DNA from: an uncultured Gemmatimonadales bacterium
GTDB lineage: Bacteria; Gemmatimonadota; Gemmatimonadetes; Gemmatimonadales; Gemmatimonadaceae
DNA length: 64,000 bases
Reading direction: 5' to 3'
NCBI GenBank assembly: GCA_963701965.1
Contig: OY969695.1
Span: 192,001-256,000 of the forward strand
Numbering within the stretch: position 1 is the first letter of the stretch; every line of letters begins with the position of its first letter. Below the pieces are notes generated by a model. It did not search any database and had not been told where the DNA came from. It saw only the letters and a program-made list of their open reading frames with translations. Positions 10,850 through 53,170 of the stretch are shown one piece after another. Made by a program: the position numbers and the translations under genes.

Positions 10850-11143
10850 CTACGCGCCGACGTGCCGTTCGCGCGTCGTGCCGAAGCGCGCCGCCGAGCG
10901 CGCGCGTGCGCGCTCGGCCTCGACCTCCCGGTCGCGCGGCTCCGCGGTCGTGACCAGCGAATCGATGAGCGCTCGCGCCGCGCTCGCGACCTGCTCGACG
11001 GCGGCGTCGAACGCCTCCTGATTGGCCTTCGACGGCACGCTGAAGCCGCTCAGCTTGCGAACGAACTGGAGCGACGCGTCACGAATCTCGAGCTCGGTCG
11101 CCGGCGGCTCGAAGTTGAAGAGGGTCTTGATGTTCCTGCACAT
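10850..11143 (-). CDS. DUF2277 family protein
   Basis: MCRNIKTLFNFEPPAT...LQFVRKLSG. Confidence 0.85.
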   Translation of the reverse strand: MCRNIKTLFNFEPPATELEIRDASLQFVRKLSGFSVPSKANQEAFDAAVEQVASAARALIDSLVTTAEPRDREVEAERARARSAARFGTTRERHVGA

Positions 11144-11158
11144 CGCGGTACTGCTCCC

Positions 11159-11530
11159 TCAATCGGTCGGTGAATGGAGCGCGACCCGGTTGCCCTCGCT
11201 GTCGAGGACGATCGCGCGATAGCCGTGCGGGCCGATCTGATGCATCGCCTGGACGATGCGGCCGCCGTTCGCGGCGACGGCGCGCACGGCGTCGCCGAGG
11301 CGCCCGTCGGTATTGAGATAGACGAGCGGACCGCGCTCGCAGGGCGCGTTGTCGTCGTCGGGCGTGTAGAGGCAGCCGCCGACGTCGTCGTGGCTGTGGG
11401 AAAAGACGCCGAAGGCGAAGCCCGGGCCGCCTTCGCGCGTCACCGGGCCGTCGAGCACCGCCGAATAGAACCTGATCGCGCGATCGAGGTCATGCACCGG
11501 AATGTCGACCCAGACAAAGCTGTGGCTCAT
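11159..11530 (-). CDS. VOC/glyoxalase family protein
   Basis: WVDIPVHDLDRAIRFY; DSEGNRVALH. Confidence 0.88.
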   Translation of the reverse strand: MSHSFVWVDIPVHDLDRAIRFYSAVLDGPVTREGGPGFAFGVFSHSHDDVGGCLYTPDDDNAPCERGPLVYLNTDGRLGDAVRAVAANGGRIVQAMHQIGPHGYRAIVLDSEGNRVALHSPTD

Positions 11531-11542
11531 GGCGAATCGTCC

Positions 11543-12182
11543 TCAGTGTTGGGCGAGGCAGGTGCCGCTGCCGTGCGGCGCGGCGCGAAACTCGGGCAGT
11601 GTCTCGGCGTGTGCCGACCACTGCGCCAAGGCCGGACAGCGCCCGGCCGGAACCCGCTCGGCGATCGTCTGCTGAATGAAATGCCAAGCGACGGCCGCGC
11701 TCACGCCGTCCTGGCCGATGGTCGCGCTGTCGCCCGCCAGCGGCGCGCGCGCAACCAGGTCGGCCTCGAGCGCGTCGCAGGCGGCGATCAGCTGGCCGCT
11801 GACGCGCTCGATCCAGGCGTCATGCCGCTTCTCGGCCGGGCGCATGTTCTCGTAGATGATCTGAACGCTCTTCTCGCACGCGGCGAGGGCGAGGCCGATC
11901 GTGCCGCAGGGCGCGTCGGCGCGGCGCCAGCTCGGCCGGCAGCAGCCGCCGTGTGCCGGTCGCAAGGACCTCCGCGTACTCGAGGATGAGGCTCGAGTCC
12001 ATCAGCACCGTGCCGTCGTCGCAGACCAGGGTCGGCGCCTTGACGATCGGATTGATCGCGGCGAACTGCTCGAAGGTGCGAAACACCGAGAGCGGCTCGT
12101 GCACGAAGCGCAGGCCGAGCAGCTGCAGCGAGACGGCGACTCGCCGCACGTACGGTGAATCGAGCATGCCGATCAGTCGCAT
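11543..12182 (-). CDS. Glutathione S-transferase (frameshifted)
   Basis: MRLIGMLDSPYVRRV, INPIVKAPTL, LMDSSLI. Confidence 0.85.
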
Positions 12183-12222
12183 CGCGCTCTCTGCCATGGC
12201 GAGGAGGATAGCGAAGATGGTC

Positions 12223-12651
12223 TCAGGGCGCGCTCGCGCCGAGATGGACCGCCGCGATCAGCCAGAGGAACACGAGCGCGAAGTTGCTCAGCGTGAACGC
12301 CGCGAGGCGATGGAGGACATGGTTGTAGGTGAGGTGGATCGCGCTGTGGATGACGCGCAGGGCGACATAGGCCGAGGCGATCCCGATCGTCAGCGAAGAG
12401 GCGCCGGCGGTGACGTAGAGCAGCAGGCAGACGACATAGAAGAGGATCGGCAGCTCGAGCAGGTTCATGTAGTTGCGATTCGGGATGCTGACGTACCCTG
12501 GCACCGCGGCCGACTCGCCGAGCTTGAAATCGTTGGGACGGATCTCGCGCTTGCGCACCGCGCGGACGCGCGCCATCGGTATGAGCAGCAGCACCACCAG
12601 CGTCCAGAACGCCAGGGCGAACATCGGATAGAGGATTGCCGGATTGCGCAT
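12223..12651 (-). CDS. MAPEG family membrane protein
   Basis: NYMNLLELPILFY; YVALRVIHSAIH. Confidence 0.85.
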   Translation of the reverse strand: MRNPAILYPMFALAFWTLVVLLLIPMARVRAVRKREIRPNDFKLGESAAVPGYVSIPNRNYMNLLELPILFYVVCLLLYVTAGASSLTIGIASAYVALRVIHSAIHLTYNHVLHRLAAFTLSNFALVFLWLIAAVHLGASAP

Positions 12652-12657
12652 CGCGGC

Positions 12658-13074
12658 TCAACGCAGCTTGGTCCGGGCGAGCCGCTTGGCGTTGGCGACC
12701 GCCTTGCGATGAACCGGCGCGAGCCCCTTGCCGAAGACGCCGAGCGCGGCGTTGTGGAGCTCGACCGCGAGGGCGCTGGCGGCGGCCTTGTTGCTGCGCA
12801 GCGAGGGCGCGGTCCAGAGCGAGCGCGTGAGGGAGAGCGACAGCGCCTGGTGCGAGCGCATCGCCTGCAGCGCCATCGCGTTCCACGATTCGCTGAAGGC
12901 GCTGTTCTTCTCGGCCACCATGCGTGCGAACTCCTTGCGGTCACGCTCGGAAAGCTTCGGCCCTGCCAGCGCGATCCGCGTCATCCGGTGGGCCACGACC
13001 TGCGGCACCGCGGTCGCGAGCTCGCGCGCCTGGATCGCCAATTGGCGCGCGAGCCGCGAACGACGCGGGCTCAT
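12658..13074 (-). CDS. Hypothetical protein (phasin-like)
   Basis: PQVVAHR...DRKEFARMVAEK...PVHRKAVANAKRL. Confidence 0.55.
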   Translation of the reverse strand: MSPRRSRLARQLAIQARELATAVPQVVAHRMTRIALAGPKLSERDRKEFARMVAEKNSAFSESWNAMALQAMRSHQALSLSLTRSLWTAPSLRSNKAAASALAVELHNAALGVFGKGLAPVHRKAVANAKRLARTKLR

Positions 13075-13283
13075 GACGCTACGGCGGCGCAGGTCGCGCA
13101 GACGCACGAAAAGCCGCCATCGAGCGCCGTCGCCCGCGCCAGGGCGGCCGAATCGAGGAGCGCGCTGACGCACCAGCACGGCGCCGCATCGTCGCCACCG
13201 CCCGATGCCATCACGCATCCGTTGGCGCGTTGGCAGAGCGGGCAGACGCTGCCGCGGACGATCGGCTCGGCCAACGCGCTCAT
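13071..13283 (-). CDS. Cysteine-rich CWC family protein
   Basis: CPLCQRANGC, CWC, CVCATC. Confidence 0.8.
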   Translation of the reverse strand: MSALAEPIVRGSVCPLCQRANGCVMASGGGDDAAPCWCVSALLDSAALARATALDGGFSCVCATCAAVAS

Positions 13284-13302
13284 CGGTCGGCGCCGCTCCG
13301 GA

Positions 13303-13668
13303 CTAGGCCTTGGGCACACGCTGGAACTCTCCCCACAACCCGCGGCACTGCCGGTCGAGCGGGCTCGAAGCGGGCGGCGCCGACGCCTTGGCCGCGCTTT
13401 TGGCGACGCGCTGACGCTCGCTCTTGTAGGCGGCGCCGGCACGTGTCTCGGCCAGGCGGGCGGCCGACTTCGCATCGGGCCTGATGCGCCAGAGGCTCAG
13501 ATAGGCTTCGTCGCGGTGCCCGGCCATCTCCGGATAGCGCGCCTCGCATTCGACATAGCTGACGTCGTAGTGCGCCAGCGATTTCGGGTCGTACGGATGG
13601 CTCTGCGCCAGCACCGGCGCGGTGGCGAGCGTGAGGACGACGGCGAGGAGAACAGGAGGGATGCGCAT
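13303..13668 (-). CDS. Secreted hypothetical protein
   Basis: Signal peptide; two Cys. Confidence 0.55.
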   Translation of the reverse strand: MRIPPVLLAVVLTLATAPVLAQSHPYDPKSLAHYDVSYVECEARYPEMAGHRDEAYLSLWRIRPDAKSAARLAETRAGAAYKSERQRVAKSAAKASAPPASSPLDRQCRGLWGEFQRVPKA

Positions 13669-13833
13669 CGAGTGGACCGTTCGAAGTAGGAGAGCGGCAA
13701 CGAGCATATGGCCCGCGCCGGCTCGCGACAAGCCCGGAGTCTAGGCGGCGGCGGAACGAATGCGCACGATGATCGTCGCCCGGCTTCGTCCACCGGCCTG
13801 CCGTCGCCGGCGCGATCGCAGCACATGCGTCGA

Positions 13834-14247
13834 TCAGCCGAATTCCTGGTGTTGCGGCAGCCCGTCGACGATCTCGAACCACGGCGCCTTGGAGCCGACG
13901 AAGATGTGCGCGGATGGCCGGAGCGAGGGCGAATCGACCAGCGTGCCGAGGGTGACGTGGACGTAAGCGCCATCGCGAACGAGCGAGTACAGGAGCGAGC
14001 CGCAGACGGCGCAACGTGCATCGTGGGAGTTAGCGCTGCCGAAGAGCCGCAGACGGTCGCGGCCGTTGGCGATTTCGAGTCGATCGCGCTCGATGCCGGC
14101 GAACGGCTTGAACGCCGAGCCAGTGGCGCGGCGGCAGTTCGAGCAATGGCAGTTCAAGGCATAGCGGAAGTGGTCGTCGACCGTGTACTCGACCGCACCG
14201 CAGAGGCAGCGGCCGGCGAGCCGTCGCGCGGCGGAATGCGTCGGCAT
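13834..14247 (-). CDS. GFA/CENP-V family protein
   Basis: GRCLCG, CHCSNCRR, CAVCGS. Confidence 0.9.
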   Translation of the reverse strand: MPTHSAARRLAGRCLCGAVEYTVDDHFRYALNCHCSNCRRATGSAFKPFAGIERDRLEIANGRDRLRLFGSANSHDARCAVCGSLLYSLVRDGAYVHVTLGTLVDSPSLRPSAHIFVGSKAPWFEIVDGLPQHQEFG

Positions 14248-14632
14248 CAGCGACCGGCATAGTGCGCCGCCGCCATGACGAACGGAAGCACCAGTTCGGG
14301 GATCAGATAGCCGAGCCAGACCGCCGCGGGCCGGGGCAGCCCACCTTGCTGATCGAGAGCAGTCGGCCGCATCCGGCGAGCAGCACGCCGAGCGCGAGCA
14401 GGTAGACCAGCGTGTCCTGCTGGCGCACTGTGAGCCCGGCCCACAGGCAGATGACTCCGGTCCCGAGATAGACGCCGGCCATGAAGCGGTGGACGTTGTC
14501 GAGACGCGGCGAGGTATCGGGCTGGCCGAGGATCATCTGTAGCGAGCCGCCGAAGATCGCGATCGCGGCTGCGAGGAAAAGGCAGGCCTGGACGACGTGC
14601 TGGCTGAGCGTGAGTGGAAGGTCGGCGCTCAT
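14247..14632 (-). CDS. DUF4345-like membrane protein (frameshifted)
   Basis: LDNVHRFMAGVY, GRLLS, four TM segments. Confidence 0.65.
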
Positions 14633-15039
14633 TCAGCGCCTTCGAGGACCAGCTGGGTTTGCGTGACGACGGCGCAGAGCTTGCCGTTGTCGTTCCTGAC
14701 CGAGGTCTGCCAGACCATCGTCGTGCGGCCGCGGTGCAGGGCGATGCACTCGCCCGTGACCGTCGTGTCCAGGCGCGCCCCGGCGATGAACTTGGTGCTC
14801 GAATCGGTGGTCGCCGTGCGCTTTCCCGGCTTCAGGTTGAGCAGCGTTCCGACCGCGCCCAGGGTATCGGCGAACGCCATGTAGGCGCCGCCGTGAAGGA
14901 TGCCGCCGGCGGTGCACAGGTCGGCGCGGACCTTCATCTCGGCGACGACCCGGTCGGGGGCGAGCTCGACCAGGCGCACGCCCATCAGGCCGGGGAAGAG
15001 CGGAGCGAGCAAGGTCTGGAGGGAAGCGAGTTCTGGCAT
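14629..15039 (-). CDS. PaaI family thioesterase
   Basis: GILHGGAYMAFAD; HRGRTTMVW. Confidence 0.9.
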   Translation of the reverse strand: MPELASLQTLLAPLFPGLMGVRLVELAPDRVVAEMKVRADLCTAGGILHGGAYMAFADTLGAVGTLLNLKPGKRTATTDSSTKFIAGARLDTTVTGECIALHRGRTTMVWQTSVRNDNGKLCAVVTQTQLVLEGAE

Positions 15040-15091
15040 CGGGGGCTCCTCGCGGCGGAAAGCGTCGGATCCGCAGGTCGGTTTTCGGCCG

Positions 15092-15304
15092 TTACCTGGA
15101 CTTGCCGCCGAACGCCAGCAACAGGCCGCCGGCGACGACGGCGCCGACGCCGAGCCAGACCGGAACGTTGACCGTCTTCGTCTCCTTGACCGATAGCTCG
15201 AGCGGGCCGAGCTTGACCGCGGTCTTGTCGTCGGTGTAGCTGAAGCCGCCGTAGGCGAGCGCGAGCACGCCGAGGACGATCAGGACGACGGCGGCGATTT
15301 TCAT
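15092..15304 (-). CDS. Small two-TM membrane protein
   Basis: MKIAAVVLIVLGVLALAYGGFSYT...VPVWLG. Confidence 0.75.
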   Translation of the reverse strand: MKIAAVVLIVLGVLALAYGGFSYTDDKTAVKLGPLELSVKETKTVNVPVWLGVGAVVAGGLLLAFGGKSR

Positions 15305-15351
15305 GAGGCTCCTTGGCAGCGGTGGCGCGATTCTGCCGTTGCCGTCGATCG

Positions 15352-15852
15352 TCAGGGCGAGGGGTTCCCGGCAAGGAGCTCGACCTCGGCCTCGACCTCG
15401 ACCGGGATGTCGAACGGCAGCTCGTACAGGCCGACGGCGCTGCGCGAATGCGCGCCGACCGAAGGGCCGTACAGCTCGACGATCAGCTCCGAGAAGCCGT
15501 TGATCACGCTCGGCTGTCGGTTGAACCCTGCCGCCGAGTTGACCATGCCAAGGACGCGGCACCAGGCCGCGACGCGATCGAGGTCGCCGATGGCGCGCTT
15601 CAGGCTGCCGAGCATCGACAACGCCACCAGGCGCGCGGCGGCATGGCCCTGCTCGAGCGACAACTCGCGACCGACCTTGCCGAGCGGCTCGGCAACCGAG
15701 CCGTCGACGTTCTGCGGACCGTGGCCGGAGATGAACGCGCGCGAGCCGACGATCCTGACGAACTGGAACGGCAGGACGACGCCGGGCGGCGGCTTGAGGG
15801 GTGCCGGCAACATGAGACCGAGCGCGGCGAGTTTGGCTTCGACAGCGGCCAT
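15352..15852 (-). CDS. RidA/YjgF family protein
   Basis: SGHGP, GMVNSA, INGFSEL, HSRSAVG. Confidence 0.9.
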   Translation of the reverse strand: MAAVEAKLAALGLMLPAPLKPPPGVVLPFQFVRIVGSRAFISGHGPQNVDGSVAEPLGKVGRELSLEQGHAAARLVALSMLGSLKRAIGDLDRVAAWCRVLGMVNSAAGFNRQPSVINGFSELIVELYGPSVGAHSRSAVGLYELPFDIPVEVEAEVELLAGNPSP

Positions 15853-15854
15853 GG

Positions 15855-16250
15855 TCAGACCTCCTTGTTGGTGACGGCACGGGTCAACGTGCCCGCGCCC
15901 AGAGTGACGTGGAGCATACGGCTCGGTGCGTGGACGCGGGCGGTGTGCCAGACGCCGCGCGGCACGACGACCGCGCCGCGCCCGGCAATGGCAAGCACGC
16001 GAACCCCGTCTTCGTGCTCGAGCAGCAAATCGATCGAGCCCGACAGCAGGTAGACGAACTCGTCGCCGTTCGGGTGCATTTCCCAGGTCGGCCAATCGGC
16101 GACGAACTCGTATTCGGACACGACCCAGTCGCTGCCGACGCGGTCTCGCTCGGCCTGCGCCAGCGACCAGAACGCGTCGCCTCCGGGCAGCGTCTCGGCG
16201 ACGCCGTCGGCGCCGAGGCGAACGTAGCTGTCTTGCGGATTCAAGAGCAT
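15855..16250 (-). CDS. Cupin domain protein
   Basis: WEMHPNGDE; VPRGVWH. Confidence 0.85.
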   Translation of the reverse strand: MLLNPQDSYVRLGADGVAETLPGGDAFWSLAQAERDRVGSDWVVSEYEFVADWPTWEMHPNGDEFVYLLSGSIDLLLEHEDGVRVLAIAGRGAVVVPRGVWHTARVHAPSRMLHVTLGAGTLTRAVTNKEV

Positions 16251-16924
16251 GGCGTATCGCCGCCGATCGGCGCTTCGAGCAGGCAACCGAACTCGCGCGC
16301 GAAGTCGACCGAGACCCGCGCGTGCACCGCGCCCTGCTGGTCGAAGAAGCGCTGGCTGCCGGCGAGGGCGAAGACGCCTTCGTGCCAGATGTCAGGATGG
16401 ATGTAGAGGCCTTGGGCGCCGGCGAATCGAAAGCAGACGAAGCGCTCCGGCGTGACGTCGTCGCCGGGCAGCGCCAACGGCACGTAGAACGGCCGCTGAT
16501 CGAGCGGAAAGAACAGCTGGCCGCCATCGGGGTGGTAGTTGGCGTGCCACAGGATCACGCGCCGCGGCGGATCGGCGTGATCGGTGCGCGCGAGCTCCGG
16601 CGCTTCGCCGTAGCCGAGGATGTAGTGGCCGCCGACGGCTTCGTTGCGGCCGTAGAGGATGTCGCCCTGCCATTCGCTCACGAACACGCCCTCGGTCGTG
16701 CCGCCCTGGTCGCCGGTATCGGCGTCGACCGGACGGCGGCCGCGCGCCGGCCAGCGAACGATCTCGACCCGGCACGCCGCGGGATCGTCGACCAGGCGCC
16801 CATAGCCGAGCAGGCTCTCGGGCGAGGCGTCGACGACCGGCATGCGCACGCGCTTCAGGCCCGCGGGCAGGTCGGGGAACAGGTAGTCGATCGGCGCCGC
16901 CGCGCTGCCGCGATCGCCGATCAC
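16241..16924 (-). CDS. Ureidoglycolate lyase-like protein
   Basis: HANYHPDGGQLF; GLYIHPDIWH. Confidence 0.7.
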   Translation of the reverse strand: MIGDRGSAAAPIDYLFPDLPAGLKRVRMPVVDASPESLLGYGRLVDDPAACRVEIVRWPARGRRPVDADTGDQGGTTEGVFVSEWQGDILYGRNEAVGGHYILGYGEAPELARTDHADPPRRVILWHANYHPDGGQLFFPLDQRPFYVPLALPGDDVTPERFVCFRFAGAQGLYIHPDIWHEGVFALAGSQRFFDQQGAVHARVSVDFAREFGCLLEAPIGGDTPCS

Positions 16925-17373
16925 GATCCGACTCCGCGCGCCATCAGGCTGGCGCACAGCGCCATCGCGAGCAGCAGGATCAGCTCGAAGCGCAGCATGA
17001 CCACGATCCGACGATGCTCCGTGCCCGAAACGACCGGTGCCAGACCTTGCTTCGTCCGTGCGCCCCACTTGATGAAGCGGATTGTCGGGTAGATCGACAG
17101 CAGGCCGACGCCGATGAACAGCGTCAGCTTGGCGCGAAAGAACGGGTTGGACATGTAGAACGCCTGGCCCTTCTCGAAGTAGTAGACGCGCAGGAAGCCG
17201 ACGACAAGGACCACCATGGCGAAGACGCCGAACCACCGGTCGGCGAGCTGGATGCGCCGCGCCTCGGCGAGCGTCGGCGCGCGGCTCATCGTCTGCCACT
17301 CGAGGAAGACGGTGGCGACGATCGCGAAGACCGCCAGGAAATGCAGGAACGCGAAGACGGCGCTGATCGTCAT
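16921..17373 (-). CDS. DUF2214 family membrane protein
   Basis: AFLHFLA, EKGQAFY..NPFF, LLSIYPT, MARGVG. Confidence 0.8.
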   Translation of the reverse strand: MTISAVFAFLHFLAVFAIVATVFLEWQTMSRAPTLAEARRIQLADRWFGVFAMVVLVVGFLRVYYFEKGQAFYMSNPFFRAKLTLFIGVGLLSIYPTIRFIKWGARTKQGLAPVVSGTEHRRIVVMLRFELILLLAMALCASLMARGVGS

Positions 17374-17384
17374 GGCGCAGAACG

Positions 17385-17735
17385 CTAGAGGCGGATGCCG
17401 AAGCGAGGCAACAGCCACAGCATCATCGCGTACGCGGCAGCGGTGGCCGCGCACGAAAGCGCCAGGCTCGGCCAGAAGCCAATGGCTGCGCGCAGCAACG
17501 CCGGGAACAGCGTGAACAGGACCAGCGAAGGCAGGACCAGCCAAAAGATGTTTTGCGAGAGCGCCGCGACGCGTTCCGCGCTCGCCGACTCGGCGTGCAG
17601 CCAGACGAAGGCGAGCAGCGACGTCAGCGGCAGCGATGCCAGCGCCGCAGCCCACAGCGAGTTGCGCTTGGCGAGCTCGGTGACGGCGACGATGACCAGC
17701 GCCGAGACGAGAACCTTGATGACGTAGTGGGTCAC
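17385..17735 (-). CDS. DUF3147 family membrane protein
   Basis: LASLPLTSLLA; IFWLVLPSL. Confidence 0.8.
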   Translation of the reverse strand: MTHYVIKVLVSALVIVAVTELAKRNSLWAAALASLPLTSLLAFVWLHAESASAERVAALSQNIFWLVLPSLVLFTLFPALLRAAIGFWPSLALSCAATAAAYAMMLWLLPRFGIRL

Positions 17736-17750
17736 GGCGTTCGCATTCCT

Positions 17751-18068
17751 TCATCTCAGCGACAGCTTTCTTCGACCCACCGGCCATAAGGCTCGGACAC
17801 CCGCTCGAGAGGCACGGCGTCGATCGCCGGCAACTCGTACTCGTGCAGCTCGCGAATCGCGCTTTCGACCGCCTGGTAGCGCTCGTCGGTCGTCTTGAAG
17901 AGGATCCGGAACTCCGGATCGTTTGCGATCTTCCCCTGCCAGCGCGTAGAAACTTTCGATCGCCGAGATTTCCGCGCACGCCGCCAATCGGCGCTCGACC
18001 AGCGTCCTGGCGACTCTTCGCGCGGACTCCAGGGTGGCCACGGTCGTGGTGACGGCGAGGAGCTTCAT
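17751..18068 (-). CDS. cutA: CutA divalent-cation tolerance protein (frameshifted)
   Basis: LVERRLAACA; second frame LFKTT...HEYELP. Confidence 0.8.
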   Translation of the reverse strand: MKLLAVTTTVATLESARRVARTLVERRLAACAEISAIESFYALAGEDRKRSGVPDPLQDDRRALPGGRKRDSRAARVRVAGDRRRASRAGVRALWPVGRRKLSLR

Positions 18069-18139
18069 CTGCGCGTCGTGTGATCGGCCGGAAAGGATAA
18101 ACCCGCGGCGGCGCCGTTCCGATGGTGTGCTGCGCCGGT

Positions 18140-18656
18140 TCACCGGCAACCGACGGCTTCGGCCACGCCCATCTCCCCGGCGATCAAGGCGAAGTCTGCG
18201 GCCGGGATGTTGGATGTAGCCGAAGCGGAACGCCGCACCCCAGTGCGTCTTGTTCGTGATGAACGACAGGCGCTCCACGAGCGGCTTGATGGCCGCCTCC
18301 ACCGCCTCGCCGAAGAAGCCGATGTCGATGCGGTACGGCTCGAAGTCGTCGGCCATCTGTACCTGGTAGATCGTGCCGGTGGTAACGATGCCGATGGCCG
18401 TGAAGCGCTGCAGCGGCTGACCGTCCGGGTACGACGTTCGCGGCGAGTACATCACCAGCCCGTCGCCGGCATGCATGCGCCGCAGTGGCGCACGCTTGCC
18501 GTGGCTGAGCTGGATGAAGCCACCTTCGACGCCGACACGAACATGCTCGCGCGAGACGACGCCGACCCAGAATTGGCGTCGCGCCGTCGCCACTTCAAGC
18601 GTGGCGCCAGTTGTCGCCTTCCTGCGGGAGGTGCTCACCTGTCGCCCCGCGCTCAC
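18140..18656 (-). CDS. EVE domain protein (frameshift near C-terminus)
   Basis: GVVSREHV..G..GGFIQLSHGK; YSP; WGAAFRFG. Confidence 0.85.
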
Positions 18657-19447
18657 CAGCGCCACACCTCGGACGGGTTCAGCCAGGGGACGCGCTGCTT
18701 CGCCGAGCTCAGCGCTTCTTCACCCGATTCGAACCGCAGCTCGGAGAACCTGTTCAGCGATTGCCAGCGACTGCTGCCGTCGAGCTCGCTGCGATATTGC
18801 TCGAAGCCGAAGGTGCCGTCCGCTCGCGCGAAGACATCGACGCACCGGGCACCGTCAGCGTCTTCGAACGAAGCGAGAACTTGGTCGTGCCCAGGCCACA
18901 TCGTCGCAACCCGCGAAAGGATGAATTGCGCCCTCGCCGACACCGGACCGCGCGGGACTTCGGCCAGGCGATAGCCCGCCGCTCGATACGCCGCCAGTTC
19001 GGCCTGGTGACCCGCGACGCCTTGTTCGTACGGGTGCCGCCTCTCGGCGTCGTTGACGTAGATCTCGGGCCAGGGCGCCGTGAAGAAGACGACCGGGTGG
19101 TAGCGATAGTCCGCGGCGGCCGCGACGAACGGCGCCTGCTCGATGGCGCTCAGTTCGTTCGCATGACCCAGGCATTCCGGGATGCCCCGGTCGAAGAACA
19201 CCGGCCGCGAGCGCTCGGCGACGGATTCGAACGCCCGGATGTATCCCGCCAGAAGGAGCTCCATGAACTTGCGATGGTCCTGCCAGGGTGTCGCGTCCCC
19301 GCCGGTCGCAAGCTGGCCGCGAACGACCTGCCGGCCGACTTCTTCGACGCACGGGTATCGAAGCGACGACAGCGCTGCGAGGATCGACGACTTGCCCGAG
19401 CCCGAGGCGCCGGTCAGGACGAAGAAGTTGCGGCGCTCGGTCGTCAT
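18653..19447 (-). CDS. AAA_28-type ATPase with extra C-terminal module
   Basis: [26 protein letters not shown]; tail RCVDVFARADGTFGFE. Confidence 0.8.
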   Translation of the reverse strand: MTTERRNFFVLTGASGSGKSSILAALSSLRYPCVEEVGRQVVRGQLATGGDATPWQDHRKFMELLLAGYIRAFESVAERSRPVFFDRGIPECLGHANELSAIEQAPFVAAAADYRYHPVVFFTAPWPEIYVNDAERRHPYEQGVAGHQAELAAYRAAGYRLAEVPRGPVSARAQFILSRVATMWPGHDQVLASFEDADGARCVDVFARADGTFGFEQYRSELDGSSRWQSLNRFSELRFESGEEALSSAKQRVPWLNPSEVWRW

Positions 19448-19475
19448 GGTCGCGAAGCGGGCCCTCGCGCCCGGC

Positions 19476-43268: not shown

Positions 43269-43275
43269 GGATGCT

Positions 43276-43731: not shown

Positions 43732-43757
43732 GACGGACTCGCTTGGATTCGTGTGCC

Positions 43758-43835: not shown

Positions 43836-43917
43836 GTCGCCCGCGCGAAATAAAAATAGACGTGCCGAGGAGGCCAGGCATAAGCTCTCCCCGCCTCATA
43901 CACCCTGGGAGATTCCG

Positions 43918-44325: not shown

Positions 44326-44345
44326 GAAGTCGATCCCCGCACGGC

Positions 44346-44423
44346 GCCTGACGTTTGACATGAGCGGCGGCTGTACGCGAGCGAAGCTTGCCGGAGGACG
44401 TCCGCTCGACGGAGGGGTTCGGC
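44346..44423 (-). repeat. attC
   Basis: GCCTGAC GTTTGACATGAG...GTCCGCTCGACGGAGGG GTTCGGC. Confidence 0.85.
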
Positions 44424-44669
44424 CGATCACTCATTGGGACCGCGAAGTGAGCGAACGCCGGCGCGAAAGCCCTGGTGCTTTGCAAGTGGCGCGCTTGCAG
44501 GAGGTGGCTTTGCGCTGGGTGCGGGTGCCGCGGTGCCGCGAGTCGGCTGTCTCACTCAAGAGTGGCGCATCGAGGGGGTTAGGCGACAGCGACCGAACGG
44601 CAAGACCAACGGGATTGCCGGCGCCGGACACGAAGGATCCGTTAGCGGGAGGTCTCGCGCGCCCCAAGG

Positions 44670-45182
44670 TTAGAAGAGATTCGGATCAGGCGGTTTGCTG
44701 ATTTCCGAGCGATTGGCCTCTATGAACTCGCGGAACGCTCCGGAATAAAGACGTTGCCCTTCCCGGTCGAACACCTCCTTCATCAACGGGTGCCGCAGTT
44801 TCTCAAAGATGTATTGATCCCAGCCTTCGCTTTCGAACTGCTTCGCAACCCAACTAGACCTTCGCGTTGTCTGGTACATCTCTTCAAAGACGCTCAGATG
44901 GAAATACACGAAGGTCTTTAGCTGGTAGTAGTCGTCGCATCTCGGCACTTCTGCCGATGGGGCATAGAAGTACGACGTCTTCCGTTCGACCTGCTCCATG
45001 AGCAAGCGGAGCATCTTCGGGTTAGAAATCGCGAGTTTGTCGATCTCATACATCCGATCCCAAAGTTTCGCCGTTGGCGTGAGCGGCAATAGCGCCCGAG
45101 ATAAGACATAGGTAAGGAGGCCCAGCGCCGCAGCAAGCGCGGCCACCGCAACACCGAGCAAAGTGGCTTGAATCTGGGTCAT
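44670..45182 (-). CDS. Hypothetical N-terminal TM protein (cassette)
   Basis: Intact lower-GC ORF starting just after attC. Confidence 0.7.
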   Translation of the reverse strand: MTQIQATLLGVAVAALAAALGLLTYVLSRALLPLTPTAKLWDRMYEIDKLAISNPKMLRLLMEQVERKTSYFYAPSAEVPRCDDYYQLKTFVYFHLSVFEEMYQTTRRSSWVAKQFESEGWDQYIFEKLRHPLMKEVFDREGQRLYSGAFREFIEANRSEISKPPDPNLF

Positions 45183-45212
45183 GTAACGGTGTGCTGAGAG
45201 GCGTTCTATTCG

Positions 45213-45290
45213 GCCTAACGTTCGGCACGAGCGGCGGCGCAAAGGGCGCGAAGCGGGCTTTGCAACGTCCGCTCGACGGAGGGGTTAGAG
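45213..45290 (-). repeat. attC (both cores intact)
   Basis: GCCTAAC...GTTAGAG, 78 bp. Confidence 0.9.
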
Positions 45291-45725
45291 GCCACGATTG
45301 GGAGCGGTGAGTAGCTTCTTCATAAAGAACTTGGAAAAGCCCACTGGATTGTTCGGAAGCTCCCCGAAACAGATGTAGCCGATACGCTCGTAGAACCCGC
45401 GCGCCTGAAATTCAATTGTGTCGAGCCACACCCCATGGCAGTTTCTCTGCCTGGCCTCCGCCTCGGCAAGCTCCATGATCTGGGCGCCGATGCCGCGACC
45501 CCGAAGATGCGTTGGCACTGCTAGGAGATGCACCATGAGCCAGTCGTAGGACGTGTTCCCCCACAGACCTCCGATCACGGAGCCCGAGCTGTCTCTGAGC
45601 AGCACGGCCAAGTGGCGATACTGGCTAGGCCCGGCCTGACTCGTGTTGTATTGGCCGAGCACGCCACCGATGGCCTGTCGGTTGTCAGCGTCCTCGACGT
45701 CGGTGAGAGAAAGCGTGTAGTCCAT
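45285..45725 (-). CDS. GNAT acetyltransferase
   Basis: LRGRGIG; LDTIEFQARGFYE. Confidence 0.9.
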   Translation of the reverse strand: MDYTLSLTDVEDADNRQAIGGVLGQYNTSQAGPSQYRHLAVLLRDSSGSVIGGLWGNTSYDWLMVHLLAVPTHLRGRGIGAQIMELAEAEARQRNCHGVWLDTIEFQARGFYERIGYICFGELPNNPVGFSKFFMKKLLTAPNRGL

Positions 45726-45752
45726 GCTAAAGCGAGACGGCGTGCGGGTGGG

Positions 45753-45831
45753 ACCTAACGTTCGACATGAGCGGCAGCTGGAGGCAGGCAAACCCTGGCG
45801 GAAGCGGTCCCGCTCGATGGAGGGATTAGCG
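45753..45831 (-). repeat. attC separated from its gene by IS110
   Basis: ACCTAAC...CGCTCGATGGAGGG ATTAGCG. Confidence 0.85.
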
Positions 45832-45832
45832 A

Positions 45833-47499
45833 AGTAATCGGCCTGCTGCCGCAAATCGCGCCGAAGAAACTCTGCGCGGCTTTGTTGTGGCAAGGTGGAA
45901 TGCGGCGCTGCGGAAGACCGATGTGGCAGTGGTGCGTACTGCCCGCGGATTAGCGTGGTCCTGGGTGACGTCATCGACATTGGTGAACCGGCTCGACGGT
46001 TTGCAGCCGCCGGGTCGGTATCCCGTTTGAGAGAATGAGCAAGACGACGTACCCGATGCGGCGCCACATTCCACAACGGATGATGGAGCAAGCCATGGCC
46101 GGACGCAACGCAAGAGTCAGCCCCAAGCCGGATAAGTCCCGAGCAGCCCTGACGATCACCCACCCCAATGCCGCCGGAATCGACATCGACAGCGCGTCCC
46201 ACTTCGTGGCCGTACCGCCGGACCGGGACGACGAACCCGTGCGCGAGTTCCCAAGCTTCACGGTCGATCTCAACGCCCTGGCCGATTGGCTCGACGCCTG
46301 CGGCGTCGATACCGTTGCGATGGAATCGACCGACGTGTACTGGATCCCTCTGTTCGAGCTGCTGGAGTCGCGCGGCTTCACCGTGCTGCTGGTCAACGCT
46401 CGCCACGTCAAGAACGTCTCCGGGCGCAAGTCCGACGTGCTGGACTGCCAGTGGCTGCAGCAGCTCATGACCTACGGCCTGCTCAGTGGGGCGTTTCGTC
46501 CGGCCGAGCAGATCTGCGTCCTGCGCTGCCTGTACCGCCAACGCGAGATGCTGCTAAAGAGCCAGGCCCGTCATGTCCAGCACATGCAAAAGGCGCTCAC
46601 GCAGATGAACACCCAGCTGACCAATGTCCTGGCCGACATCGTCGGCGCCACGGGGCAGAAGATCTTGCGCGCCATCGTCGCCGGCGAGCGCGACGGCGCT
46701 ACGCTGGGCGCGCTCAAGAATGTGCGCGTTCATGCCAGCGCCGACGAGATCGCCAAGAGCTTGCAGGGCAACTGGCGCGCAGAGCACCTGTTTGCACTCA
46801 AGCAGGCGCTGGCACTGTTCGACTTCATCGGCACGCAGCTCAGCGAGTGCGACGGCGAGATCGAAGCCCAACTGCAGAGCCTGCGCACTCACGATGGCGA
46901 TCCCGCCAAAGGCAAGAAGCGCAGCCGCTCGCGTAACGCCCCGAAGTTCGATCTGCGCGTGCAGCTGTTCCAGATGTGCGGTGTCGACCTCACCCGTATC
47001 GACGGCGTCGACGTCACCACGGCGCTGGCGGTGGTCTCGGAGATCGGCGTGGACATGGCACGCTTCCCCACCGTCAAGCACTTCACCTCCTGGCTGGGCC
47101 TGTGCCCGGGTACCAAGATCACCGGCGGCAAGGTGATGAGCGGCAAGACCAAGCGAGTCGTCAATCGCGCTGCGCAGGCCCTGCGCCTGGCCGCCGCCGC
47201 GCTGCGCAGCAGCAAGTCAGCGCTCGGCGCGTATTTCAGAAGGCTCTGCTCGCGCATGGACAAGCCCAAGGCCGTCACCGCCGCCGCACACAAAATCGCT
47301 CGGCTCATCTACTTGATGCTGACCAAAGGCCAGGAGTACACCGATCAAGGCCAGGACTACTACGAGCAACGCTACCGCGAGCGCGTCCTGCGCGCCCTAT
47401 CTCAGCGCGCCGCCAAGCTCGGTATGAAGATGGTCGCCATCGAGCAACCCGCCTGAAATCCACCCTCCAAATCAATCACTTGGAACGAGTTTCTTGAGA
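45833..47499 (+). mobile_element. IS110 family element (long type), GA core inferred
   Basis: GA at both junctions (45831-32, 47500-01); ~260-bp structured non-coding left end. Confidence 0.8.
46095..47456 (+). CDS. IS110 family transposase/recombinase
   Basis: AAGIDID, VAMEST, RKSDVLDC, SWLGLCP. Confidence 0.92.
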   Translation: MAGRNARVSPKPDKSRAALTITHPNAAGIDIDSASHFVAVPPDRDDEPVREFPSFTVDLNALADWLDACGVDTVAMESTDVYWIPLFELLESRGFTVLLVNARHVKNVSGRKSDVLDCQWLQQLMTYGLLSGAFRPAEQICVLRCLYRQREMLLKSQARHVQHMQKALTQMNTQLTNVLADIVGATGQKILRAIVAGERDGATLGALKNVRVHASADEIAKSLQGNWRAEHLFALKQALALFDFIGTQLSECDGEIEAQLQSLRTHDGDPAKGKKRSRSRNAPKFDLRVQLFQMCGVDLTRIDGVDVTTALAVVSEIGVDMARFPTVKHFTSWLGLCPGTKITGGKVMSGKTKRVVNRAAQALRLAAAALRSSKSALGAYFRRLCSRMDKPKAVTAAAHKIARLIYLMLTKGQEYTDQGQDYYEQRYRERVLRALSQRAAKLGMKMVAIEQPA

Positions 47500-47501
47500 G
47501 A

Positions 47502-47925
47502 CGCCAGCATGCCAGAGCCTGATACGAGCCTGCCGCAAAGCGAACCAGCCCGTAGAGACTGCAAGCGTGACGCCTGCGGCGGCCTCGAACCAGATGGTGA
47601 AGTTCATCGCAAGCGTGTGCTCAGAGCAGAGAGCCAGCGTGTAGTGCGCAAGCCCGTCGAGTCCAAACGCTCCATAAGCGGCGAAGAAGAGTGCGGCCGT
47701 TGTGCGCCAACCTGCCGCAACAAGAACGGCGCCGATGATGCCGACGCCGGTGATCATCAGCCAGGCGAGATAGACCTTTTCCCTTGTGAGCCAGGTTGGC
47801 ATGTTCGGATAGAAAGCGATGTATTCCGCGTTGTGGCTGAAGTGAGCGAGGCTCGCGACGCCATACAGCGCGAGCACCGGCCACACGTGGCTTGGCAAAT
47901 GCAACGAGCCGGGAAGCTCCTTCAC
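47502..47925 (-). CDS. Hypothetical membrane protein (3' end cut by IS110)
   Basis: HFSHNAE, YPNMP; four TM segments. Confidence 0.7.
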
Positions 47926-47932
47926 TGCTGAG

Positions 47933-48010
47933 GCCTAACGTTCGACATGAGCAGCGGCGCAAAGGGCGCGAAGCGGCCTTTGGGACGTTCGCTCGATGGA
48001 GGGGCTAGAG
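47933..48010 (-). repeat. attC
   Basis: GCCTAAC...CTCGATGGAGGG GCTAGAG. Confidence 0.9.
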
Positions 48011-48011
48011 C

Positions 48012-48608
48012 TCACTGGGCAGGCGACGGCTGATCCCTTTGCACGAGCGACAGATATTGCTCGAGAGTTCCGCACGAAAGCGGCTTGAACATGACGCGCA
48101 AGGTATTTGTGAGCTTCCCCATTTCGACGCCATGGCGCGTTCTGACTTCAATGTACCCGAGCGCTTCCCAAAACCGCTCGGCTCGACTGTTGCCCTGTAC
48201 GACGCCGAGCCGAAGCCACTTGGCACCGTTGGAGGCGGCCCACGCTTCGAGTTCGCCATACAGCGCCTGGGCAAGCCCCGTCCCGTGATGCGAAGTGGCT
48301 ATCACAAATAAACCAATGTGCCAGACGCTCGGGGCAAGAAGATCGGAGACGATGTTCGCCATCGCAACCATTCCTCCATCGGCGTTCAAGTAGCCCACCA
48401 ACCACTTTCTCGTGAAGCTCCACCCTACCGGCAATTCGCCATGGATTTCTTGGTGCGCCTCGTTCGGTCCCGCGGGCACACCGTTAACCGCAAGAAAGTA
48501 TTGCGGATTGGCTACGAAGAAGGCCTGCAGCAGCTGCTCATCTTCACCCGTGATCTCTATCGCACGCAAGCCCGGAACGAAGGAGACCGGGAGTGCGGCG
48601 ACCGTCAT
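48012..48608 (-). CDS. GNAT acetyltransferase
   Basis: HHGTGLA; LRLGVVQGNSRAERFW. Confidence 0.88.
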   Translation of the reverse strand: MTVAALPVSFVPGLRAIEITGEDEQLLQAFFVANPQYFLAVNGVPAGPNEAHQEIHGELPVGWSFTRKWLVGYLNADGGMVAMANIVSDLLAPSVWHIGLFVIATSHHGTGLAQALYGELEAWAASNGAKWLRLGVVQGNSRAERFWEALGYIEVRTRHGVEMGKLTNTLRVMFKPLSCGTLEQYLSLVQRDQPSPAQ

Positions 48609-48614
48609 CGTGGG

Positions 48615-48683
48615 CTCTAGCGTTCGACATGAGCGGCGGCCGCAGTCAAGTGCAGCTTGCCGAAGGACGTCCGCTCGATGGAG
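48615..48683 (-). repeat. attC split by IS110 (remainder at 49851-49859)
   Basis: CTCTAGC GTTCGACATGAG...CTCGATGGAG, then IS, then GAGTTAGGT. Confidence 0.9.
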
Positions 48684-48698
48684 CAACTGTGTCTCAAG

Positions 48699-49669
<971 letters not shown>

Positions 49670-49670
<1 letters not shown>

Positions 49671-49830
49671 CTACCCTTCCTTGCGAATGCATGTTCATCA
49701 TCGACAACTGTTCGGGCTACACGGTTGGATAAGAACGGGCCAATGCGTTGACCTAATGCTCCATCACGAGCTAGAACTCAGAGGGGTAACTGGTTTGGCG
49801 CATCGACCACGAAACTACGGCACTGCTGTG
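49670..49830 (-). ncRNA. Predicted bridge RNA (ends approximate)
   Basis: Four guide segments matching target and donor junctions in IS621 order. Confidence 0.8.
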
Positions 49831-49900
49831 CCTACTTCGGAAGATACAAGGAGTTAGGTCGCACCTCGGCTGCCGCGATACGCTCTTGCCCGTGTGGCTA

Positions 49901-50197
49901 CTACACGCCCTCAAGGGTAATGAGCATGTCCATTTCACTAGTGCATTGCTTCCGAAGAGCAATCAGCGGCGCATATTCGGGCGCGGTGTACCAGGCGTTA
50001 AGCGCTGTCATATCCGGGAACTCGATGATCACGACGCGCTCTGGGGTCCAGTGGCCTCCTTCGGGCATCCTATGGGCTCCTCCCTTGTTGAGATAGCGGC
50101 CTCCGTACTTGGCGATGAGTGGGCCAACCTTGACGCGGTAGTCCTCGAACTTGGACGCATCCGTGATGATGTGCTCAACGATCAAGTAAGCGGACAT
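49901..50197 (-). CDS. DUF1330 protein
   Basis: YGGRYL; IIEFPD; WY..PEY..LIALR. Confidence 0.88.
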   Translation of the reverse strand: MSAYLIVEHIITDASKFEDYRVKVGPLIAKYGGRYLNKGGAHRMPEGGHWTPERVVIIEFPDMTALNAWYTAPEYAPLIALRKQCTSEMDMLITLEGV

Positions 50198-50239
50198 GGG
50201 TTGCCTCCGAATGCGAGCAGTCTCAGTGTTTGCGGCGCG

Positions 50240-50307
50240 ACCTAACGTTTGAGATGAGAGGCGTGACCCGGCTCGCGGGGCAAGTCCTCTCGATTAAAGG
50301 GTTAGGC
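50240..50307 (-). repeat. attC of dfrB cassette (68 bp, cores intact)
   Basis: ACCTAAC GTTTGAGATGAG...CTCGATTAAAGG GTTAGGC; dfrB stop lies in the core box. Confidence 0.9.
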
Positions 50308-50538
50308 CACGCGTTCAAGTGCAGCGACAGGATAAATTTGTACTGAGCCTGGGTGAGATTCAGACTCGACGGCGTAGCCCTCAGGGGTCAGTTTTGTGCA
50401 ATACCAGCCGACAACTTGACCCTGCCAAGCGGCGCCAGACTTCTTGCGTACACGATCTCCCAGGCCAAACGTGGCGCGCAGTCGCAATGCAAACGGACCA
50501 GCAACTGGAGTACTGATGTCGTTGCTACTTTGATCCAT
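50302..50538 (-). CDS. dfrB: Type II (R67-like) dihydrofolate reductase, trimethoprim-resistant
   Basis: 78 aa; [34 protein letters not shown]. Confidence 0.97.
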
Positions 50539-50646
50539 ACCTAACCCTTTTCGTCAATGTTTTGAGATGCTCGGCTGATCCAGGTCTACTTTTTGATTGG
50601 GCGATGACCTTGAAATCCTTCGCCCATGACGAGCCTGCTGGAGGAC

Positions 50647-51899
50647 GGGATCTTGCTCCGCTTTAGTTGACACATTGTTGTTAGGTCGTGCGTCGTTCGA
50701 AGGTAGCTGGCGGCGTGTGATCGAGAGACGAGTGCAGCCGCGTGTGGTTGTAGTACCGCAGGTAGGTGTGCAGAGTCTGCCTGAGCTCCTGGTCGCTGTC
50801 GAACCGCTTGCCCCAGAGGAACTCGCTCTTGAGTGAGTGGAAGAACGATTCCATGTGGGCGTTGTCGTTCATCTGACCGGGACGGTTCATGCTCTGCACG
50901 ATGCCGTGGCGGCGCAACGCCGCCTGGTAATCGAAGGCGCCGTACTCGATGCCGCGGTCGGTGTGGAAGATCAGGCCCGGCTCGGGTCGCCGCTTACGCA
51001 CAGCGTGCTGCAACGCTGTTCGGGTTAACTCGGCATCGCGTCTCTTGCTCAGGCTCCAGCCCACAAGCCTGCGTGAGTACTTGTCCATGACGACGGCCAT
51101 GTAGCGCCATTGCTGCCTGACGCGCAGGTAAGTGACGTCACCCACCCAGACTTGGTTGGTGTCTTGAAGCTGCAGGTGGCGCTGCCGGTTGGGGATGCGC
51201 TTGTAGAAGGCCTTCTGGCCCACCCTTCGGCGGCGATAGAGCCGCGCGCTGCGGCCCTGGATGTGTGCGCCGCGCATGAGCCTGGCGACCCGCCGGCGGC
51301 CGATTGATAAGCCCGCCTGCCGCATGGCTTGAGTCACCCGCGGACTGCCGTAGGTGTTCAAGCTGCTCGCGTGGACGCTGCGGATCTGCTCGGTGATGGC
51401 AGCGTCATCGACCTGGTGTTGGCTGGCTCCGCGTGCCTGCCAGGCGTAGAAGCCGGCCCGCGTTACGCCCAGCTGCCTGCACATCATCGCGAGGGGCCAC
51501 GCTTGCCGGTTTGTCCCGATGAAGGCGAAGACTTCGCCTTTCGTTCTGAGACAAACCGGATAGCTTTTTTTAGCAGGTCGTGCTCCATCTGCAGCTGCCG
51601 GTACTTGCCCTCGACTTCGCGCAGCCGCTGTAGCTCCGCTACAGCGGCTGCATCGAGCACCGGTGACTTGCCACTGAGCACGCCGTCTCTGACCTGCTTC
51701 CTCCACTTGGAGAGCATGAAGGGGTGGATGCACAGCGACTCGGCCACATCCTTGACGAGTACGCCGGGCTGCTCGCTCATGCGAACCGCGCGTAGCTTGA
51801 ACTCAAGCCCGTAGCGGTTGATCTTCTTCGGGCCAGGCATGCCCATTTGAGAACTCCTTCCGTTAGGTCAGAGTGTCAATCAAACCGGTGCAAGCTCCA
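50647..51899 (-). mobile_element. IS3 family element inserted in an attC
   Basis: 27-bp imperfect IRs; orfA from 51846, A7G slippery site 51564-51571; orfB WVGDVTY, HTDRG, DNAHMESFF. Confidence 0.93.
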
Positions 51900-51918
51900 C
51901 GTCCGCTCGATGGAGCGG

Positions 51919-52413
51919 TTAGGCCACATGTTGCGCTTGCTCGAGGACACTACCTGGTAACCAGCAAGCCATCCGAGTGGCGATCGCGCCTTTGCGCCGA
52001 AATGGCTTCGAGATGGGAAAGAAACCCAACGCTTGGTATGCGGCAATAGCGTACGGCGACGAGTTGAGTTCGACGGTTTTGACTTCCGGATAACTCTCTT
52101 CAAGGTGGGCGCGTGCGGCATTCCACAACGCCCGCCCGATGCCCTTGCGCAACTGACTGGGAGCGACAAAGAACAGTTGCACAAGCGTCAAGCGAGGCAA
52201 GAGGATGACTCCGACTACCTGAGCGTCGTGCTCGCACACCAAGCAAAGGGCTGCCTCGGAAAGCTTTAATGCGAGCTTGTCGGCCTGGGTTTCGGCGATG
52301 AACTCGTGCTGAGCCGACAACTCCCAATCTGGGGCAATGTGCGCGGCGAAGCCGGCTTGAACCAGCTGCGAAATGGCCACCGCATCATCAGCGTTCGGTT
52401 GGCGCAGATGCAT
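51919..52413 (-). CDS. GNAT acetyltransferase
   Basis: FFVAPSQLRKGIG; LNSSPYA..AY..LGF. Confidence 0.88.
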   Translation of the reverse strand: MHLRQPNADDAVAISQLVQAGFAAHIAPDWELSAQHEFIAETQADKLALKLSEAALCLVCEHDAQVVGVILLPRLTLVQLFFVAPSQLRKGIGRALWNAARAHLEESYPEVKTVELNSSPYAIAAYQALGFFPISKPFRRKGAIATRMACWLPGSVLEQAQHVA

Positions 52414-52421
52414 GCTCGTGG

Positions 52422-52499
52422 GTCTAACGTTTGAGATGAGCGGCGGCCGCAGGCAAGCGCAGCTTGCCGGAGGACGTCCACTCGATGGAAGGGCTAGGC
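52422..52499 (-). repeat. attC of first cassette
   Basis: GTCTAAC GTTTGAGATGAG...CTCGATGGAAGG GCTAGGC. Confidence 0.9.
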
Positions 52500-52525
52500 C
52501 TCAGTGGACAACACATGGCATTCGT

Positions 52526-53068
52526 CTACGCACTCGCCTTGGGCCACCCGACGTTTGCAGCACGACGAAGACTGGCTTTCACAACCTGGCGATGAAAGGG
52601 AGCAATGACCGATAGGTAGGCTCGGCCCAAGCGGTTGTGGCAGTAAACGACGGTTGATAGGGTCAGTTGGCTACCGGTAGTTGGCGGCGAGCCTGGCGTA
52701 CAAAGAATTGACACTCTGAAGTCAAGATGCTTGTCGTTCTCGCCTAAGACGACCTCAGTTTCGCTGGTGCTGAAGACCCTGAAGATGCTGATGCGGGGGG
52801 CTGTGGCATCACTAGAGAGCGTTGCAAGGTGCTTGGCGGTCTTCAGACCAAATCCCGCAACGATTGCATCTCGGACTTGGATGAGCGCTCCGATCCAAGA
52901 TGGCTGCTCCGCGAAGATGAATCGGGCCAAGACATCTGGATTTATAGAGGCGTCAGAAGGAAGTCGAATCGAAAACGCGTCTGCGAGGTTCACCGACTTG
53001 AATGCAGTAGCGACGGCAGACTGCGAGGGCAGGGCAACCTGCTCTACTAGCGTGAGTTTGCCTGGCAT
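52526..53068 (-). CDS. DUF2867 protein (first cassette)
   Basis: GENDKHLDFRVS; HNRLGRAY...PFH. Confidence 0.85.
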   Translation of the reverse strand: MPGKLTLVEQVALPSQSAVATAFKSVNLADAFSIRLPSDASINPDVLARFIFAEQPSWIGALIQVRDAIVAGFGLKTAKHLATLSSDATAPRISIFRVFSTSETEVVLGENDKHLDFRVSILCTPGSPPTTGSQLTLSTVVYCHNRLGRAYLSVIAPFHRQVVKASLRRAANVGWPKASA

Positions 53069-53084
53069 GGATGGACCTTCTGAG

Positions 53085-53170
53085 GCCTAACGAACAGCGT
53101 TTGTCTGACGCCGAGCCGATGTCTGTCGAAGGGCGTGACGGGACATGGCGTCAGATAAACCCCGTTGGAC
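53085..53170 (-). other. Putative attI
   Basis: Minus strand ACAAACGCTGTTC GTTAGGC just before first cassette; not of attC family; 14-bp inverted repeat 53099-53112 / 53147-53160. Confidence 0.7.

Follow-up and report, generated by a model that had tools for sequence, protein, structure and literature searches.

The stretch of 64,000 nt analysed here (GCA_963701965.1, contig OY969695.1, positions 192,001-256,000; hereafter the window, whose positions serve as coordinates) carries a long run of short genes between the conserved lolC/E-lolD genes (7270-9278, + strand) and the remnant of an integron integrase gene, intI (55948-56231, + strand). Based on a simple custom gene caller, the run holds ~71 genes, transposases excluded, all on the - strand, and extends from the end of lolD (9,278, + strand) to 53,068. 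Pfam names along it include glyoxalase, GST, MAPEG, GFA, cupin, GNAT, SnoaL, DUF1330 and comparable names, and the same families turn up repeatedly. From left to right, we distinguish a DUF3943 boundary gene of 474 aa (9284-10708, - strand), a tail of 30 short co-oriented genes devoid of attC sites (10850-24369, - strand), a remnant zone of 12 genes (24397-31737, - strand), an eroded zone of 13 genes (31756-38349, - strand) and a proximal zone of 16 cassette genes (38369-53068, - strand). Array membership of the boundary gene is uncertain, given its length and its location elsewhere, too, in relatives without the run. On the right, a dnaE2-like polymerase gene (56229-59415, + strand) forms the conserved flank of intI. 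The window holds a chromosomal integron whose host is Caldimonas-like and whose array is bounded by lolD and the truncated integrase gene.

The genes in the right part of the run are separated by a repeat family of ~78 bp, in which the R-box, L-box and extrahelical-base structure covaries (0/500 shuffles reached any of five measures). The structure, which was derived from the same sequences, is paired at 81% of its positions compared to 28-44% when slid. Co-oriented genes with attC hairpins bearing R and L boxes between them, as expected of a sedentary integron, are therefore present. A covariance model built from 131 attC sites of relatives only, with the window excluded, detected 15 sites on the + strand at E<0.001, all within 31,756-52,499, which bears out the full attC sites that an earlier reading of the letters alone (the sequence-only reading) had placed in the right part. 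When a profile of the window's own attC sites was searched against the 5.1-Mb assembly, none was found elsewhere except one 15-bit partial hit. Full-length sites of the proximal zone lie at 38369, 38899, 42097, 43758, 44346, 45213, 45753, 47933, 50240 and 52422, while damaged ones comprise those hit by insertion sequences (IS) at 42453, 48615 and 51855, an internally deleted site at 43276 and a 5' half at 40.75 kb. The sites that had been called full between 38 and 52.5 kb are indeed full-length but not undamaged: both the AAC and GTT cores are kept in only 3/11 full-length window sites (those obviously split by IS elements left out), as opposed to 63/72 sites of four relatives with an intact integrase.

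Next, we aligned the profile at the 71 junctions of the window and at 368 control junctions. The 99th control percentile was exceeded at 10/16 junctions above 38.3 kb, 5/13 at 31.7-38.3 kb and 4/12 at 24.5-31.7 kb. Below 24.4 kb none of the 30 junctions exceeded it and three exceeded the 95th (1.5 expected), in agreement with the earlier statement that no attC is recognisable below ~24 kb. Nine of the 12 positions previously described as eroded proved solid, with those at 37.0, 36.55 and 33.38 kb being borderline (E 0.06; p 0.05). Among the solid ones, 34.7 and 31.8 kb are near-full sites (34,700-34,774 and 31,756-31,830; 40 and 48 bits, respectively), 32.32 kb is a strong 5' half (score 19.5; 0/365 controls exceed 8) and 40.75, 35.85, 34.28, 31.2, 29.8 and 25.2 kb exceed all 368 control junctions. 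The junction test added remnants at 24.9, 32.9, 38.13 and 43.3 kb. In the eroded zone, sites reduced to a half or collapsed are located at 32.32, 32.9, 34.28, 35.85 and 38.13 kb, and the four positive junctions of the remnant zone lie at 24.9, 25.2, 29.85 and 31.2 kb. Overall, what is left of a site may be its 5' or its 3' half, a hairpin that has collapsed or a sequence split by an IS. Scores change only weakly with position among the detectable window sites (rho 0.32, p 0.19); across all 71 junctions, rho reaches 0.49. With no downstream attC of their own at any of the 30 junctions, the genes below 24.4 kb are not cassettes now.

Base composition and spacing change along the same axis. The G+C content at third codon positions (GC3) by zone, from 9 to 53 kb, is 0.89, 0.84 (both in the attC-less tail), 0.74, 0.75 and 0.68, compared to 0.92 in the core genes of the segment, and the Spearman coefficient among the 42 genes below 31.7 kb is -0.78; the rise of GC towards the host level, previously noted by eye, is thus real. 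The packing of the tail was likewise confirmed: the spacers below 24.4 kb have a median of 19 bp, and six of the 30 are cases of abutting or overlapping genes. As 25/30 of them are <57 bp, they are too short for any site of the ~78-bp family. A scan for promoters and terminators stayed at chance level. In total, 42/71 genes lie beyond the last model-detectable site, in keeping with the claim that the array is larger than an attC search would report.

At the other end of the array, only the N-terminal 93 codons of intI are left and, relative to relatives, ~880 bp are missing between 56,228 and 56,229, a loss that fused the remnant to the dnaE2-like gene. A full integron integrase had zero matches over the family cut-off in the assembly; as the true host genome is only partly present in it, a second intI may exist elsewhere. 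The integrase in the window is dead and, having two or more attC sites but no functional intI nearby, the locus qualifies as an attC-site cluster without an integron integrase (CALIN). Relatives G064 and G108 carry a full TIGR02249 match over the cut-off at the same locus. The attI motif, found upstream of intI in 10/13 relatives checked, is absent from the window, where an IS1595-family transposase remnant (53418-53972, - strand) occupies the relatives' attI position. The truncated integrase, the decay of the proximal sites too and the genus-wide pattern described below had all escaped the sequence-only reading.

To place the host, a recJ search (the query being a frameshifted reading; 7 loci returned) led to a Caldimonas sp. 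match. The lolCDE genes were matched in 44/49 genomes of that genus, at up to 91%, and a full integrase in 19/49, both tallies including G071, whose sequence was not used. We compared the DNA behind lolD in 27 genus relatives and one Ottowia genome; 17 further lolCDE-positive genomes, mostly with short flanks, were left out of scoring, and three short ones kept out of the main run comparison (G073, G109, G096) were all without the run on separate inspection. An attC-less run of short genes lies behind lolD in 22/27 relatives, so that the left border of the locus is conserved, and the intI-dnaE2 junction was matched in the loci of 14 relatives. In G064 and G108 (intact intI) and in G069 (broken intI), the order lolD, run, attC zone, intI and dnaE2 was recovered on a single contig. 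The run is 86-100% co-oriented in 21/22 relatives (G100 having ~six genes only), with a median length of 110-159 aa. The attC sites of the relatives cluster at the intI end, leaving an attC-less part of 15-47 kb in the eight longest arrays, and GC3 falls with distance from lolD in the attC-less zone of all eight relatives with at least 30 such genes (rho -0.61 to -0.85). Pooled remnants above the 99th control percentile amounted to 2%, 1%, 7% and 25% in the successive quartiles of the attC-less zone and to 73% in the attC zone; a second scoring by GC3 class gave 0.4%, 2%, 15% and 60%, with 0% in the control.

Since these assemblies are independent, they also bear on whether sequencing errors or a chimeric contig could mimic the decay. 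Several features of the window assembly would fit such an artefact: its core genes show 0.84 frameshifts per kb, the first 330 kb (G000:C1:1-330000, which hold the window) have a tetranucleotide signature unlike the rest of the single contig, and a search of sequencing runs gave no reads of the window strain (best share 0.15, other strains only) and yielded nothing about the intI junction, habitat or expression. Yet the pattern recurs in the relatives and both flanks are syntenic with them, leaving this explanation a next to negligible probability. Divergent second copies of lolD (54%) and dnaE2 (53%) lie outside the 330-kb segment, and relatives of the assigned taxon, from which no counts were used, match the window core genes at only ~70%, a poor match attributable to the foreign look of the first 330 kb. 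As judged from signature and gene copies, the contig is probably chimeric, with a foreign 330-kb segment, and the assembly's taxon is probably not that of the window's host. The frameshifts in recJ, lolE, lolD, dnaE2 and a peptidase gene (1-9280 and 56229-63900) point to assembly indel errors. We rejected frameshifts as evidence for pseudogenes because the core genes are at least equally frameshifted.

The cassette origin of the tail was addressed by homology. In the relatives, an attC-flanked member was found for 29/283 families of the attC-less zone and for 1/304 control families, which corresponds to 35-fold odds, and the attC-less copy had the higher GC3 in 23/24 paired families (0.81 vs 0.70). 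With an attC library enlarged with family genomes and 128 metagenome loci (801 partly redundant sites), the homologues that the sequence-only reading had asked for in the 11-24 kb genes were obtained: attC-flanked homologues exist for 8/30 distal window genes (51-76% identity) and for 10/29 genes above 31.7 kb, compared to 0/104 short control genes. In each of the six cases out of these eight that were inspected, a full attC lies within ~40 bp of the stop codon. The cupin gene at 28,099 is 86% identical to a cassette, with which it has the 3' end TGACGCC in common, followed by an attC only in the cassette. The distal genes did not turn out to be syntenic core genes of integron-less relatives devoid of cassette homologues. 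Instead, the DNA behind lolD in the five genus relatives without the run carries other, ordinary genes that include one run family, and the distal 16 kb matched relatives without the run in no more than four dispersed places (G079, G111) and Ottowia in none.

Taken together, we consider it very probable that the stretch from lolD to the truncated intI is one chromosomal integron array, of which the distal ~40 genes likely began as cassettes, were deprived of attC, became fixed and are vertically inherited. Several observations weigh against this interpretation. The compared genomes are kin and non-independent, so the p-values overstate. No detectable attC trace is left below 24.4 kb, and the cassette origin there therefore rests on homology and position; 22/30 distal genes have no attC-flanked homologue in the 801-site library, and the homologues found are family members of only 51-76% identity. 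Several tail families also occur as ordinary genes across the family (250/401 genomes have a match somewhere in the distal 14 kb). Within the attC-less zone, spacer length does not change significantly with position in 7/9 arrays, and the GC3 trend is not significant in short tails (G087, G092, G086) and in contigs covering the distal end only. In G426, from another genus, a 258-site array has no GC3 gradient (rho 0.07) and two attC-less tail genes, which also means that the GC3 slope is not generic to arrays. Finally, the parsimony polarity of synonymous changes yielded AT-to-GC:GC-to-AT ratios of 38:123, 14:37 and 0:12, with a GC-to-AT excess in every class, flanks included, although this excess is probably a bias of parsimony with distant outgroups. 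The earlier claim that old cassettes lost attC and became fixed is supported, among others by the attC-flanked homologues; ongoing amelioration does not emerge from the polarity counts.

The lack of attC traces below 24.4 kb, the tail families that are common as ordinary genes, the 22 distal genes so far without attC-flanked homologue and the boundary DUF3943 gene that sits elsewhere in relatives without the run would suit an ordinary acquisition hotspot beside the integron, whose genes came by other routes and never had attC. We regard this as unlikely. Remnant frequency, GC3 and sharing shift continuously across the boundary, the genes are single, short, unrelated and oriented like cassettes (control loci have a median of 206-268 aa and 31-78% of genes on one strand), cassette families are enriched as described above, and the run is absent in five relatives.

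The tail of probable former cassettes appears to be stably inherited. Shared tail genes keep their order between close species (tau 0.72-1.0 in the 22 closest pairs) and lose it with distance, the 14 remotest pairs giving tau -0.2 to 0.73; G067 and G072 share 53 families in identical order, and the first genes of the window are collinear with those of its nearest relatives (tau 0.82-1.0). Genes beside lolD are the most widely shared among species (rho -0.27 to -0.71 in nine arrays), and the attC zones of different species share almost nothing. Synonymous distances are 0.3-0.7 for the first genes, compared to 0.2-0.5 for the flanks, and mostly 0.9-1.9 for genes further in. The time order previously read into the array is thus supported indirectly, with species sharing falling and synonymous distance rising towards intI. 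Gene trees of four tail families, compared with lolD, are largely unresolved, with some species groups recurring. The ratio of non-synonymous to synonymous change (dN/dS) between G067 and G072 has a median of 0.18 over 51 shared tail genes, none >0.6, and ranges from 0.16 to 0.59 for window tail genes compared with G066, G078 and G097; judging by these ratios, the tail genes are under purifying selection.

Gene order and remnant shape also speak to the reverse direction, in which host genes would acquire attC within the run, as in a nursery, and turn into cassettes. Families common to run and cassettes, a polarity test without AT-to-GC drift and the fact that cassette genesis is described as unexplained in PMC4889954 would accommodate this scenario. 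Against it, the remnants look like broken sites (halves, hairpins that have collapsed, sites split by an IS), the tail order is frozen between species while their attC zones share almost nothing, and cassettes enter at attI, the opposite end; we give it a very slim chance.

Another possibility is that erosion was episodic and set in only after intI loss, such that the array froze and then decayed and position is no record of age. Indeed, intI is truncated in the window, the proximal sites are damaged (3/11 with intact cores vs 63/72) and the score trend among detectable sites is weak. However, in G064 and G108 an intact intI and intact proximal sites share a contig with attC-less tails, 35 and 53 genes long, whose GC3 slope is the same, and a uniform decay would yield no slope. 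Because these tails stand beside an intact intI, intI loss as the sole cause is refuted. We consider the episodic scenario highly unlikely, and intI loss probably explains only the damage to the window's proximal zone.

How cassettes could turn into permanent genes can be sketched as follows. According to PMC4889954 and PMC5371416, attI is the entry point of cassettes, and two att sites are required for excision. It is established that new cassettes insert at attI beside intI and displace older ones outward; position along the array would correspond to age. As the damage forms in the sequence show, attC sites are lost through internal deletion, insertion of IS elements and point mutation, with replication slippage on the hairpin as the likely cause of the internal deletions. 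For a gene past the last working attC, the far side would offer nothing to recombine with; the integrase could not take such a gene out, and a one-way ratchet would result. Afterwards, spacers would shrink, synonymous sites would drift to the host composition and the genes that are kept would be under purifying selection. The window genome has since lost its integrase and attI, with the proximal sites now decaying as well.

Known systems resemble parts of this picture, as far as the accessible portions of the cited papers go. The sedentary chromosomal integrons and CALINs with an intI pseudogene of Cury et al. 2016 (PMC4889954) likewise have a conserved intI locus, a homogeneous attC family and co-oriented cassettes, and in CALINs integrase loss leaves an attC cluster. 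Arrays were bounded there by attC detection plus a 4-kb extension rule, whereas 42/71 window genes lie beyond the last detectable site, with graded composition. Fused class 1 cassettes (Fonseca and Vicente, PMC4670013) are similar in that partial or total attC loss creates permanent operon-like units, inseparable by the integrase and co-transcribed, but such fusions are described as rare and involve two genes, while here tens of genes are concerned, arranged according to apparent age, and this in most of a genus's species. Translation reportedly matters more to array expression than attC sites or distance do (PMC11511950). Loot et al. (10.1101/2022.09.11.507474) put forward the same mechanism and outcome, with cassettes inserted in the genome being domesticated when slippage deletes attC, though in one speculative sentence about single cassettes outside integrons and with no genomic series. 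In Xanthomonas (10.1101/2025.06.18.660453), where "domestication" refers to citrus, integrons share the ancestral locus, frequent intI loss and stabilised arrays; fixation was ascribed to integrase loss, whereas tails in the Caldimonas genus form beside intact integrases too. In the open-access literature (subscription journals and supplements being outside the search), we found CALINs, intI loss, rare fusions and one domestication sentence, and no description of a graded attC-less tail. Single attC losses are known; with its genus-wide graded tail, this would appear to be a new form of sedentary chromosomal integron.

Integrons are commonly seen as gene stores that work reversibly, and a graded tail means that they also feed genes one way into the stable genome. 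Tools based on attC would miss over half of the array, namely 42/71 genes in the window, and the attC-less share in three complete relatives' arrays is 35/39, 53/74 and 32/36 co-oriented genes. The tail offers a natural time series in which the decay of attC, amelioration and the retention of acquired genes could be measured, and indicates which cassette functions persist in the long term. In the window, the attC-less tail families are DUF2277, glyoxalase, GST, MAPEG, GFA, DUF4345, thioesterase, RidA-like, cupins, DUF2214, CutA, EVE, GNAT, isochorismatase, AHSA1, PEMT/ICMT, SnoaL and DUF3995, plus unknowns. We are inclined to go further and see the integrons of this genus as a conveyor that carries mobile cassettes into permanent genes and leaves a position-dated series in each species, in which the tail often outnumbers the detectable cassettes; many unexplained bacterial runs of short, co-oriented genes would then be fossil integron tails that attC searches cannot see. 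Both attC-less tail genes of G426 (G426:C1 ~5,038,800-5,193,000, L156-L164) belong to families also present in Caldimonas tails, and G223 has a tail of ~6-8 genes.

The surroundings of intI hold further elements. A CTGT-N8-CAG box (53983-53998, + strand), which we take to be LexA-like, is also present upstream of intI in relatives, many of which have intI directly upstream of and co-oriented with the dnaE2-like error-prone polymerase gene behind this box. Such an arrangement suggests that both genes might be under joint SOS control. Between the box and the start of intI, rather than in an attC site, sits a group II intron (54001-55930, + strand, with putative ends) whose reverse transcriptase open reading frame spans 54,367-55,911. 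An 86-bp attC-like hairpin of a different sequence type (53085-53170, no strand assigned) has intact AAC and GTT cores and was rejected as attI.

Mobile elements also lie within the array. IS5-like transposase pieces (26,315-26,942) are found inside the remnant zone. An IS110-family transposase gene (46095-47456, + strand) adjoins the attC at 45753, and the element end of a second one (48699-49520, - strand) abuts the broken attC at 48615. Copies of 104 bp of an IS110-family end, at 42506-42609 and 48668-48771, abut the attC sites 42453 and 48615 at the same position, one of them without a transposase. A two-ORF (open reading frame) transposase, presumably IS3-like (50681-51846, - strand), interrupts the attC at 51855-51924. 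The proximal zone further includes a dfrB-like (R67 DHFR) trimethoprim-resistance cassette gene (50302-50538, - strand) with its own attC at 50,240-50,307 and 88.7% identity to dfrB10 over 284 nt; the G108 array has a 90% identical dfrB-like homologue without detectable attC. Outside the array, another group II intron, whose reverse transcriptase is frameshifted, is located at 60680-62560.

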